Shown: positions 315 through 1,592, counted from the stretch's first letter. The stretch is 4,151 nt of DNA from Escherichia coli (GCF_003334785.1 NZ_QOWV01000048.1); one strand, 5' to 3'. Notes: generated from the sequence alone by a model not told the origin. Numbers and translations are program-made.

Positions 315-372
315 GAAGATCCTTTGAACTTTTTATAAAAGTTGCTTATAAAATGATGCATCAGCACAACTT

Positions 373-579
373 TTACTCAATCACACTCATCTTTCTGGCC
401 TCCATGGCATGACGTAAAAGTATATAGCCACATGCAAGCATCCCTCCAATGACAGAAGAAAGAATTACAATTATGGCATTACTTGGCCCATCCTTTCTGA
501 CCGGTAACGTTGGGCTCAATTGATACTGAAACGGCATAAAATCAACATCCCCTACTTTCGCCACAACCAATTGATTCAC
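373..579 (-). CDS. wzz: C-terminal segment of the same Wzz reading frame (proline-rich motif plus second transmembrane helix), separated from the N-terminal part by TGA at 597-595
   Basis: Same frame as 595..1506 (1506-579 = 927 = 3 x 309). SPTLPVRKDGPSNAIIVILSSVIGGMLACGYILL aligns with the E. coli WzzB C-terminus KPTLPIRRDSPKKAITLVLAVLLGGMIGAGIVLG. The GTG start at 579 is an ORF-caller artifact; there is no independent ribosome-binding site. Confidence 0.55.
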   Translation of the reverse strand: MNQLVVAKVGDVDFMPFQYQLSPTLPVRKDGPSNAIIVILSSVIGGMLACGYILLRHAMEARKMSVIE

Positions 580-594
580 AACATATTGACGATT

Positions 595-1506
595 TCACAA
601 CTCCCCACTCAATTCCGAAACATCCTTGATTGATTTTTTGATGTTCAATTTAGTTGCTATACCATCAGAACCGAGAGCCACAGGAAAATCTGGATCATCC
701 TTCATAATCTGACCATTGCTGTATACAGGTTTTTTTATTCCAGCCGCATTAGCAACCTCCAGTGAATAATTGAGGCGTCGAATATCTGCATTCAGCTGGT
801 TTCTAATTTTTATCTCATCCAGTGCAAGAATTTCTTTTTCAACATTAGTTTTAACTTCTAGTTTATTTCTTATATCTTCCATCAAATCCCTTACAACAAG
901 GGAAGAAACATAATTAATATACCCAGACAACACATCGTGAGCTTCTTTACTTGTTGGAGCAGTAAAACTCAGAGTCCATGATACATACAATGATGACTTG
1001 TCGTTTTTCTTACTGGCATTATCATCAACCGACTTCATATTTTCACTCAACCCAACAATTGCACGATGCAGTTCGAGAGCGCTAATGTTCTTCTTTTTAA
1101 TTATCTCCATAACATAAGGAGATGATCTCATATACTCATTCAACGAATTAACGGACTGAAATTTCTTAATAAACAGAGCAAATGCGCTATCACGATTGAT
1201 ATCAAAATCCACTCCCAGAACATGAAGCTTGGAAAGCTCCTTATTTAATCCACTCCATTGAACAGACTCAGCAGGAGTAACCACAGCAGAACTAGTCCAT
1301 TTTTGTGGCAAAACAAAAGAAACAAGAAAGCCAATACAAGCAAAAAATAGAATCACCCCAACAATTTTTATTTTTGCTGCCCATAAAACTCTAATCAAGT
1401 CAAAAAGGTCAATTTCTTCATTACCATTCGGCAACATGTTGTAATTAGAAAAATGTTCGTCAGATATCTTTGAGATTTTCATTGAAAAAATACAATATAT
1501 TAACAT
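595..1506 (-). CDS. wzz: Wzz-family O-antigen chain-length determinant (polysaccharide co-polymerase PCP-1), N-terminal 303 codons ending at an in-frame TGA
   Basis: N-terminus EEIDLFDLIRVLWAAKIKIVGVILFFACIGFLVSFVLPQKWTSSAVVTP matches the conserved Wzz start (E. coli WzzB EQIDLIDLLVQLWRGK...KEKWTSTAIITQP): first transmembrane helix, then a long Lys/Glu-rich periplasmic coiled-coil region. AT-rich. The true start may be the ATG at 1482 (MKISKISDEHF) rather than 1506; no clear Shine-Dalgarno at either. Confidence 0.85.
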   Translation of the reverse strand: MLIYCIFSMKISKISDEHFSNYNMLPNGNEEIDLFDLIRVLWAAKIKIVGVILFFACIGFLVSFVLPQKWTSSAVVTPAESVQWSGLNKELSKLHVLGVDFDINRDSAFALFIKKFQSVNSLNEYMRSSPYVMEIIKKKNISALELHRAIVGLSENMKSVDDNASKKNDKSSLYVSWTLSFTAPTSKEAHDVLSGYINYVSSLVVRDLMEDIRNKLEVKTNVEKEILALDEIKIRNQLNADIRRLNYSLEVANAAGIKKPVYSNGQIMKDDPDFPVALGSDGIATKLNIKKSIKDVSELSGEL

Positions 1507-1562
1507 ATGTTTTTTTTATTCTATCATATGTTAGGAAAAATCCTAAAAACCATTCAGCAGAC

Positions 1563-1592
1563 ATTTAACATAACATTTTAATTGTACGCACC
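1563..1592 (-). other. cer-type XerC/XerD recombination core site (multimer resolution site)
   Basis: Minus strand reads GGTGCGTACAA-TTAAAATG-TTATGTTAAAT. The left arm equals the ColE1 cer XerC arm, the 8-bp central region is cer-type length, and the right arm equals the dif XerD arm, as recalled from the literature. Confidence 0.65.

Follow-up and report, generated by a model that had tools for sequence, protein, structure and literature searches.

The 4,151-nucleotide stretch of Escherichia coli DNA examined here, called the window throughout, corresponds to a 4075-bp circular plasmid read with a 76-nt overlap (positions 1-76 = 4076-4151). It carries a ColE1-like replicon, a predicted cer-type core for the recombinases XerC and XerD, and a single cargo gene, wzz, closely related to the wzz of the Shigella flexneri plasmid pHS-2. 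Comparison with relatives places two switches of parentage in the plasmid, one inside the Xer core (joint 1) and one within the RNAII primer gene (joint 2). Judged from sequence, it is moderately probable that the window represents a chimeric ColE1-like plasmid, which would have arisen through a homologous crossover in RNAII and XerC resolution at unlike cer sites.

The wzz cargo and the cer-type core

The same plasmid is known from E. coli ECOR 10 as RCS83_pI, with a 1-nt indel in the T run at 1510 as the sole difference, and about 17 E. coli plasmids of about 4.07 kb form the group to which it belongs. The original prediction described an AT-rich, single-gene segment of roughly one-third G+C, with backbone composition resuming at the XerC arm. 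Both features are borne out. The segment 332-1562, limited by the RNAII promoter at one end and by the outer edge of the XerD arm at the other, has a G+C content of 35.7% (49.2% in 1-331 and 48.2% in 1563-4075) and contains only wzz and its flanks. In 40-nt windows, G+C rises from 0.28 to 0.50-0.60 with the step exactly at the XerC arm. wzz is indeed the sole gene of this cargo, but it is not intact, with an in-frame TGA at a codon that reads CGA elsewhere.

Profile comparison identifies wzz as a member of the Wzz(fepE) family. Residues 1-295 match NF007699 with 434.5 bits (cut-off 300) and the last 73 residues with 99.9 bits, against 556.8 bits for the intact allele of pJKHS016_4. The stop severs those last 73 residues, including the hydrophobic C-terminal transmembrane segment, and a complete protein with both transmembrane segments is thus lacking. 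From its sequence, wzz in this plasmid is probably non-functional. Among the wzz plasmids compared, the change at position 597 is common to ECOR 10 RCS83_pI only. The gene is otherwise 98.7% identical in nucleotide sequence to pHS-2 wzz, and the upstream region 1483-1562 is 95% identical to pHS-2 and 78% identical to a diverged lineage termed wzz-2. A scan of the wzz strand for promoters and terminators found none. The wzz gene of pHS-2 confers very long O-antigen chains and is commonly regarded as a trait of Shigella plasmids. At 87% identity, a direct repeat of 23 nt links 1394-1416 in wzz with 3435-3457 in a backbone open reading frame of 49 codons (3362-3511, minus strand); both copies encode a DLFDL motif, and the repeat may be due to chance.

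The core GGTGCGTACAA-TTAAAATG-TTATGTTAAAT (1563-1592, minus strand) shows 0 mismatches to known arm variants and has the cer-type layout, in which arms of 11 nt each for XerC and XerD enclose a central region of 6-8 nt. It is the only such site in the plasmid: the next best candidate, at 3586-3614 in the backbone, has 5 mismatches and was matched by 35 of 300 shuffles. A scan including 300-380 found no Xer-like site above chance, in agreement with the earlier observation that the other boundary lacks a second one. The accessory region on the XerC side is colinear with that of ColE1 cer. From the XerC arm to the palindrome TGCATACTCATGCA the distance is 114 nt here and 113 nt in ColE1, and a conserved block, GGGTGGTTTGTTGCC, lies 60 nt from the arm in both; a role of the region in resolution is putative. 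When aligned to ColE1, the cer and origin segments keep the same orientation to each other, in line with the rule that cer is fixed relative to the origin, with RNAII and Pcer running in the same direction (PMC2831885).

The replicon is of ColE1 type in that RNAI overlaps the 5' end of RNAII and rop is annotated in near-identical plasmids, whose RefSeq annotation supplied the backbone gene names used here. RNAII would be transcribed from the minus strand with a start at about 273, given the position of RNAI at 172-272 on the plus strand. Window segments 1-333 and 3535-3991 align with the ColE1 origin region at 74-75%. Coordinates of all features are collected in Table 1.

Table 1. Features of the 4075-bp wzz plasmid, in window coordinates
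Feature	Position	Strand	Basis or remark
RNAII primer gene, 5' part, and promoter	1..331	-	Homology to ColE1 935-586; pHS-2-like segment
RNAI antisense copy-control RNA, incompatibility determinant	172..272	+	Rfam RF00106, 85.5 bits, gathering score 47
-35 region GATCTCAAGAA of RNAII promoter	near 308-318	-	Within pHS-2-like segment
wzz 3' flank, 41 nt, left edge of AT-rich segment	332..372	-	Adjoins RNAII promoter
wzz, pHS-2 / Wzz(fepE)-type O-antigen chain-length regulator, pseudogene	373..1482	-	NCBIfam NF007699
Premature TGA, codon 296 of 369	595..597	-	Internal stop on translation; CGA (Arg) in pJKHS016_4
wzz upstream region, AT-rich, about 22% G+C	1483..1562	-	Directly adjoins XerD arm
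XerD-binding arm (predicted) TTATGTTAAAT	1563..1573	-	Exact match
Central region TTAAAATG, 8 nt, cargo-linked	1574..1581	-	pHS-2 counterpart TAAAATG
Joint 1, parentage switch, CAA/TTA	1579..1584	-	Border of XerC arm and central region
XerC-binding arm (predicted) GGTGCGTACAA, backbone-linked	1582..1592	-	Identical to ColE1 cer arm
cer-type accessory region, XerC side, outer limit approximate	1593..1780	-	77% identity to ColE1 cer over 95 nt
ARG-box-like palindrome TGCATACTCATGCA (candidate)	1693-1706	-	Moderate match to ARG-box consensus
Klebsiella/Enterobacter-type backbone	1593..4074	.	cer accessory region, helix-turn-helix (HTH) gene, rop, bom/oriT-like region, origin with RNAII 3' part
Joint 2, 32-nt tract inside RNAII (4075 + 1-31)	4075..4106	-	Identical in both parental lineages

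Two joints and one conserved boundary

Joint 1 separates two parentages within a few nucleotides. The window equals pHS-2 from central position 4 outward and equals the acc-B plasmids from XerC-arm position 8 inward. Relative to pHS-2, it shows 0 differences over 1-531 and 19 over 532-1541, followed by differences at 1580, 1585, 1586 and 1593; past the core, the two are about 62% identical in 1593-1640 and about 48% in 1641-1760. Conversely, the wzz-free plasmids pX39-5, pRHBSTW-00316_8 and INF158 unnamed6 are piecewise 93-100% identical over about 1587-4075 and 87% identical over 1-317, and the backbone 1593-4074 is likewise piecewise 93-100% identical to wzz-free relatives L002-L004. The XerC arm at 1582-1592 is identical in wzz-free Klebsiella plasmids and differs from that of pHS-2 at 1585-1586.

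The accessory region and XerC arm recur at 93-98% in many wzz-free plasmids of Klebsiella, Salmonella and Enterobacter, whose similarity to the window stops at 1561-1563. The outer edge of the XerD arm (1563-1573) is the end of similarity for many plasmids with unrelated cargos, among them WYL/DUF1883, ATPase plus DUF3226, endonuclease, VapD, and methyltransferase with HicB. Their cores have the same two arms and other 8-nt central regions, which diverge after the first three bases.

The unit of wzz, (T)TAAAATG and the XerD arm TTATGTTAAAT is joined to two unrelated XerC-side backbones. In the window type, it adjoins the arm GGTGCGTACAA and the Klebsiella-type accessory region. In the pHS-2 type, its neighbours are the arm GGTGCGCG[C/T]AA and another accessory region. 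Relatives of the pHS-2 backbone without wzz read GGTGCGCG[C/T]AA-TGCGACG-TTATGGTAAAT, and pHS-2 itself has TAAAATG-TTATGTTAAAT. The recurrence of this unit in both backbones indicates that wzz carries its own central region and XerD-arm variant into each. On the alignments, the Xer-side boundary is a true recombination joint located inside the core, and the central region moves with the cargo. The putative parents share about 4-6 identical nt at this joint, which is below what RecA needs for homologous recombination.

The left boundary is of a different kind. Similarity to ColE1 ends at 333, as it does at 1563 on the outer side of the XerD arm, and that to the Klebsiella-type relatives stops at 317-321. 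The diverged wzz-2 lineage has the same left junction sequence, which indicates that wzz has long been settled beside the RNAII promoter. By comparison with ColE1, position 331 is the end of the conserved replication unit and not a recent joint. In ColE1, the exclusion, colicin, immunity and lysis genes occupy the same arc, from the XerD arm at 3938 to the RNAII promoter at 586, and this arc is the cargo slot of the family. Of the two cargo boundaries in the original prediction, the one at the core is therefore a recombination joint, located at 1579-1584, and the one at 331 is not.

Neither inverted repeats, target duplications, transposon-type ends nor transposase remnants were found at 332 or 1562. 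Delivery of wzz by a transposon or insertion sequence (IS) would be expected to leave such terminal repeats, duplications or remnants, and we give this explanation almost no weight, even if IS elements do strike these plasmids (IS3 in the wzz of pZ1323HEC0011-6; IS26 in pLAO82).

An explanation based on functional constraint deserves more attention. Here, wzz would have entered a dispensable arc by illegitimate recombination, and selection on size would have trimmed the plasmid to origin and cer with no part played by Xer, so that cargo of any kind would seem to be delimited by RNAII promoter and XerD arm. The left boundary clearly reflects constraint rather than a recombination site, and every relative examined, like ColE1, confines all its cargo to the single arc between XerD arm and RNAII promoter. 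In the 7-nt class, moreover, the whole core of TGCGACG and TTATGGTAAAT stands beside differing cargos. Constraint leaves unexplained why a central region and XerD-arm variant moved with wzz into two XerC-side backbones, and why, among similar backbones, identity at central positions 4-8 is near random beside a near-invariant XerC-side flank. We regard it as unlikely.

Joint 2 is delimited by the last site differing from pHS-2, at 4074, and the first site differing from the wzz-free L003 and L004, at 32; sliding identities were also used to map it. Positions 1-331 are identical to pHS-2 and about 87% identical to the Klebsiella-type relatives of the remaining backbone, and the origin region of the window is about 74% identical to that of pHS-2. 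The exchanged unit thus comprises the central region, XerD arm, wzz, RNAII promoter, RNAI and the 5' part of RNAII. The proposal that 332-1562 was the acquired unit is not supported, as the tract shared with pHS-2 extends through the RNAII promoter and RNAI to 4075-31. At an identity of at least 95%, the RNAI allele (100-331) is present in 59 PLSDB records, wzz is carried by 60, and PLSDB apparently holds no wzz-free plasmid with the same allele.

The extent of this unit also bears on the possibility that wzz came as a circular element with a dif-like site, integrated by Xer into cer in the manner of an IMEX (integrative mobile element exploiting Xer) or pdif-type cassette. Such integration leaves two flanking Xer sites. 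The plasmid has one, its left boundary scores at chance, and its pHS-2-shared tract includes RNAI and RNAII, unlike a discrete cassette. The cargo linkage of the central region and XerD arm would fit an integrated element, as would a second XerD-arm copy 18 nt past the core of one relative, L014, but we consider this origin highly improbable.

Occurrence of wzz and of cer cores across the family

PLSDB has 60 records with the cargo, and 18 of 5426 complete E. coli genomes carry it; apart from pLAO82, its host is invariably a small plasmid. It resides in two backbone types, the 3.1-3.2-kb pHS-2 type (Shigella and E. coli) and the 4.07-kb type of the window. In pZ1323HEC0011-6, wzz is interrupted by the IS3 insertion. 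A third wzz lineage, wzz-2, has 87% protein and 88% DNA identity and occupies the same slot in plasmids of about 3.08 kb, which have the core GGTGCGTACAA-TTATTGAG-TTATGTTAAAT and an RNAI of just 72% identity. The same AT-rich segment was sought away from an Xer core, and no relative has it there. The 110-kb pLAO82 (L007, NZ_OP242230.1) was rejected as a new location, since it holds a whole pHS-2-like plasmid beside IS26. In this IncF plasmid, the pHS-2-like unit of rop, origin and wzz lies between two copies of an mcr-3.4/dgkA/IS3 segment. The 87%-identical Wzz protein P0005 was likewise set aside as a different location, being encoded in the same slot of another small ColE1-like plasmid. Contig L056, considered as a further XerC-side context for wzz, proved window-like with a local divergent patch and, as contigs from metagenomes can also be chimeric assemblies, was not used.

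Separate comparison of backbone and cargo, as advised in the original prediction, yielded wzz-free relatives of the backbone but no donor context for wzz. The donor was not identified: the nearest chromosomal genes, fepE, share 61-65% protein and 68-72% DNA identity with no flank similarity. wzz first entered the slot in an older event, which the present data do not allow us to reconstruct.

Several records are of separate interest. In a 6794-bp metagenome contig (L035), a wzz-2 plasmid is fused to a ColE1-like one; its two origins and two dissimilar, directly oriented cer cores give the arrangement of the heterodimer intermediate predicted by the model set out below. A 17.5-kb contig (L033) contains tandem copies of a wzz-2 plasmid beside a relaxase gene. 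Each of the two could be an assembly artefact. Some wzz plasmids have been deposited as Bacillus anthracis, Pseudomonas aeruginosa or Corynebacterium xerosis (PLSDB NZ_CP047109.1, NZ_CP047101.1, NZ_CP047106.1 and NZ_CP152077.1; protein P0007), and similar ColE1-like contigs occur in Clostridia, Cutibacterium and other assemblies. The occurrence of wzz plasmids under non-enteric species names is most likely contamination.

To view the cores at family scale, pattern scans of genome and metagenome contigs were combined with the plasmids already compared, giving 145 sites with full flanks; the metagenome contigs in this sample may be assembly chimeras. Their flanks form 11 clusters on the XerC side and 66 on the cargo side, and their central regions number 45. 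Across these 145 sites, and across all 153 sites listed, TTAAAATG adjoins wzz flanks only. Among the 45 distinct central regions, position 1 is invariant and position 3 is A in 37. Pairwise identity among 13 representatives is about 1.0 in the XerC-side flank, a similarity partly due to their selection for at least 85% identity in the adjacent 45 nt. In the same set, it falls to 0.28-0.49 at central positions 4-8 and to 0.2-0.35 past the XerD arm. Where two sites have the same cargo but unlike central regions, the differing bases are at positions 2 and 4-6, seldom at 7 and in no case at 8, a distribution that suggests crossovers inside the central region. An association of central region with cargo flank is evident, with 49 distinct pairs observed versus 81.9 after shuffling (minimum 74, 2000 shuffles).

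These data also address the idea that both joints are homologous or products of gene conversion, between close, unsampled parents that already shared a core, so that the joint at the XerC border would be a sampling artefact. Homology at joint 2 is plain, the collections searched lack the exact recipient parent, and the backbones are highly mosaic, with additional breakpoints near 1964-2152 and 2925 on comparison with relatives. The sampled backbones, in turn, have few identical bases at joint 1, and the restriction of TTAAAATG to wzz flanks in both site collections also weighs against it. This idea is quite improbable.

The mosaic structure of the backbone is visible in other features as well. 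rop (2702-2893) and a 133-codon HTH gene (2301-2702), both on the minus strand with a 1-base overlap, form a conserved pair. The pair and the cer region recur at 93-98% in plasmids whose origins are just about 75% identical. As rop, HTH gene and cer are common to plasmids with differing origins, the backbone itself is mosaic. Repeats cluster at 1947-2015 and 2978-3062, where a perfect 17-nt inverted repeat (TGACTTGACTCTAGAGT / ACTCTAGAGTCAAGTCA) is surrounded by GACT-rich repeats and three iteron-like repeats containing TGTAGT lie upstream of rop. The interval 1964-2152 is also the point where the likeness of the backbone to other plasmids breaks.

Beyond the XerD arm, two further observations concern the cargo side of the core. 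In L014 (NZ_LR890358.1), the additional XerD arm is an exact copy of TTATGTTAAAT in the context …TTATGTTAAATGACAGACGTAAAATAGTGTTATGTTAAAT…, which may be a remnant of an earlier Xer event. Just past the XerD arm of many unrelated cargos (e.g., L041, L017, L055 and L016) lies a similar motif, GACAGATGCAAAAAAGCCCC…GGGGC, an A run followed by a G+C-rich hairpin. Such a motif might act as a terminator or be what is left of an Rcd-like element.

Proposed history and relation to known systems

At cer, XerC alone swaps one pair of strands to form a Holliday junction that is finished without XerD; ArgR and PepA occupy about 180 bp of the site on the XerC side and favour resolution of directly repeated sites (PMC5357621). 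The proposed history of the window plasmid builds on these properties. Two co-resident ColE1-like plasmids would have formed a heterodimer through a RecA-type crossover in the highly conserved part of RNAII, leaving joint 2. Dimer resolution by XerCD, ArgR and PepA would then have acted on two unlike cer sites in direct repeat. We infer that XerC made joint 1 by an exchange at the border of its arm and the central region, after which the Holliday junction would have been completed without XerD. Each product would thereby receive the XerC arm and accessory region from one parent, and the central region, XerD arm and cargo from the other. The reverse order of the two steps is also conceivable, and the order of events, like the choice of the ancestral plasmid type, is an inference. 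One arc, shared with Shigella pHS-2, extends leftwards from the Xer central region at about 1581, takes in wzz, the RNAII promoter and RNAI, and ends in RNAII at 4075-31. The XerC arm, cer accessory region, HTH gene, rop, bom and origin make up the arc shared with wzz-free Klebsiella and Enterobacter plasmids.

Several points weigh against this reconstruction. In Acinetobacter, no Xer recombination was observed between sites with unrelated central regions (PMC11705084), and by analogy exchange between unlike cer sites may be rare. The action of XerCD on the 1563-1592 core is itself putative. The central region measures 7 nt in pHS-2 and 8 nt here, so that simple XerC exchange leaves 1 nt unexplained. 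The exact parents are not among the plasmids sampled; no wzz-free one there pairs the origin type of the window with the arm GGTGCGTACAA. At family scale, both arms were fixed by the search pattern, and the test of association between central region and cargo is inflated by repeated sampling of the same plasmid lineages. Some central regions (e.g., TCAGGGCT) occur with many cargos and some cargos with several central regions; the linkage is statistical, not absolute.

A broader generalization, in which cer sites serve as a single-site cassette-exchange system because XerC exchange tolerates unlike central regions, is tentative and seems to us rather doubtful. If true, just the first 1-3 central bases would be needed (T, then T or C, then A), and each cargo would have its own central-region "barcode" and XerD arm. 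With the second crossover being homologous and located in RNAII, a cargo swap would also take along the RNAI incompatibility determinant, as with wzz.

A Xer and cointegrate process has already been proposed for such plasmids, and what is new here lies in the details. wzz of pHS-2 type is present in a second, Klebsiella-type backbone in E. coli, and joint 1 is mapped to a 6-nt interval on the side of cer that XerC cleaves, joint 2 to a 32-nt tract in RNAII. The plasmid therefore offers a concrete example of small multicopy plasmids trading cargo along with their copy-control and incompatibility region. In relatives, the slot is occupied by toxin-antitoxin, restriction-modification, defence-like and resistance genes, and the process is relevant to their spread.

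The closest known system is pHS-2 (p2457TS2, NC_002773), with which the window plasmid shares wzz, both of its flanks, the left junction, an identical RNAI and RNAII 5' region, and the same central region and XerD arm. In contrast, pHS-2 has the XerC arm GGTGCGCGCAA, a shorter central region, an intact wzz, and a different cer accessory region, rop region and origin, in 3.18 kb rather than 4.08 kb. The likeness to ColE1 concerns the cer site, with an identical XerC arm, an 8-nt central region and 10 of 11 XerD-arm positions, and the layout, with cargo between XerD arm and RNAII promoter and the same orientation of the site to the origin. The central region is TTAAGGGA in ColE1 and TTAAAATG here, and the ColE1 slot holds colicin, immunity, lysis and exclusion genes. 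The sequence past the XerD arm, where ColE1 encodes Rcd, is absent from the window plasmid.

Tran et al. 2012 and Zakharova et al. 2002 reportedly describe plasmid evolution via Xer sites and oriT. PMC10454011, PMC8683028 and PMC6764390 refer to a cointegrate and Xer model for ColE-type plasmids (Tran 2012). Small qnrB19 ColE-type plasmids and pECL18/pKPN2 reportedly have a Xer-bounded variable region, with chimeras attributed to cointegrate formation and Xer resolution, much as proposed here; such models cover restriction-modification plasmids as well. The second site in those models is reportedly oriT, unlike the homologous RNAII crossover of the window plasmid, whose bom/oriT-like region sits in the unexchanged backbone. 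Acinetobacter pdif modules offer a further parallel, with cargo exchange at XerCD sites, central-region compatibility and a cointegrate intermediate (PMC11705084). They differ in having two flanking Xer sites without accessory sequences. In the window plasmid, the cargo is not enclosed by two Xer sites or hybrid sites, as in pdif modules or IMEX, but adjoins one cer-type site with accessory sequences. Set beside these systems, the wzz plasmid is a well-resolved example of known plasmid mosaicism.

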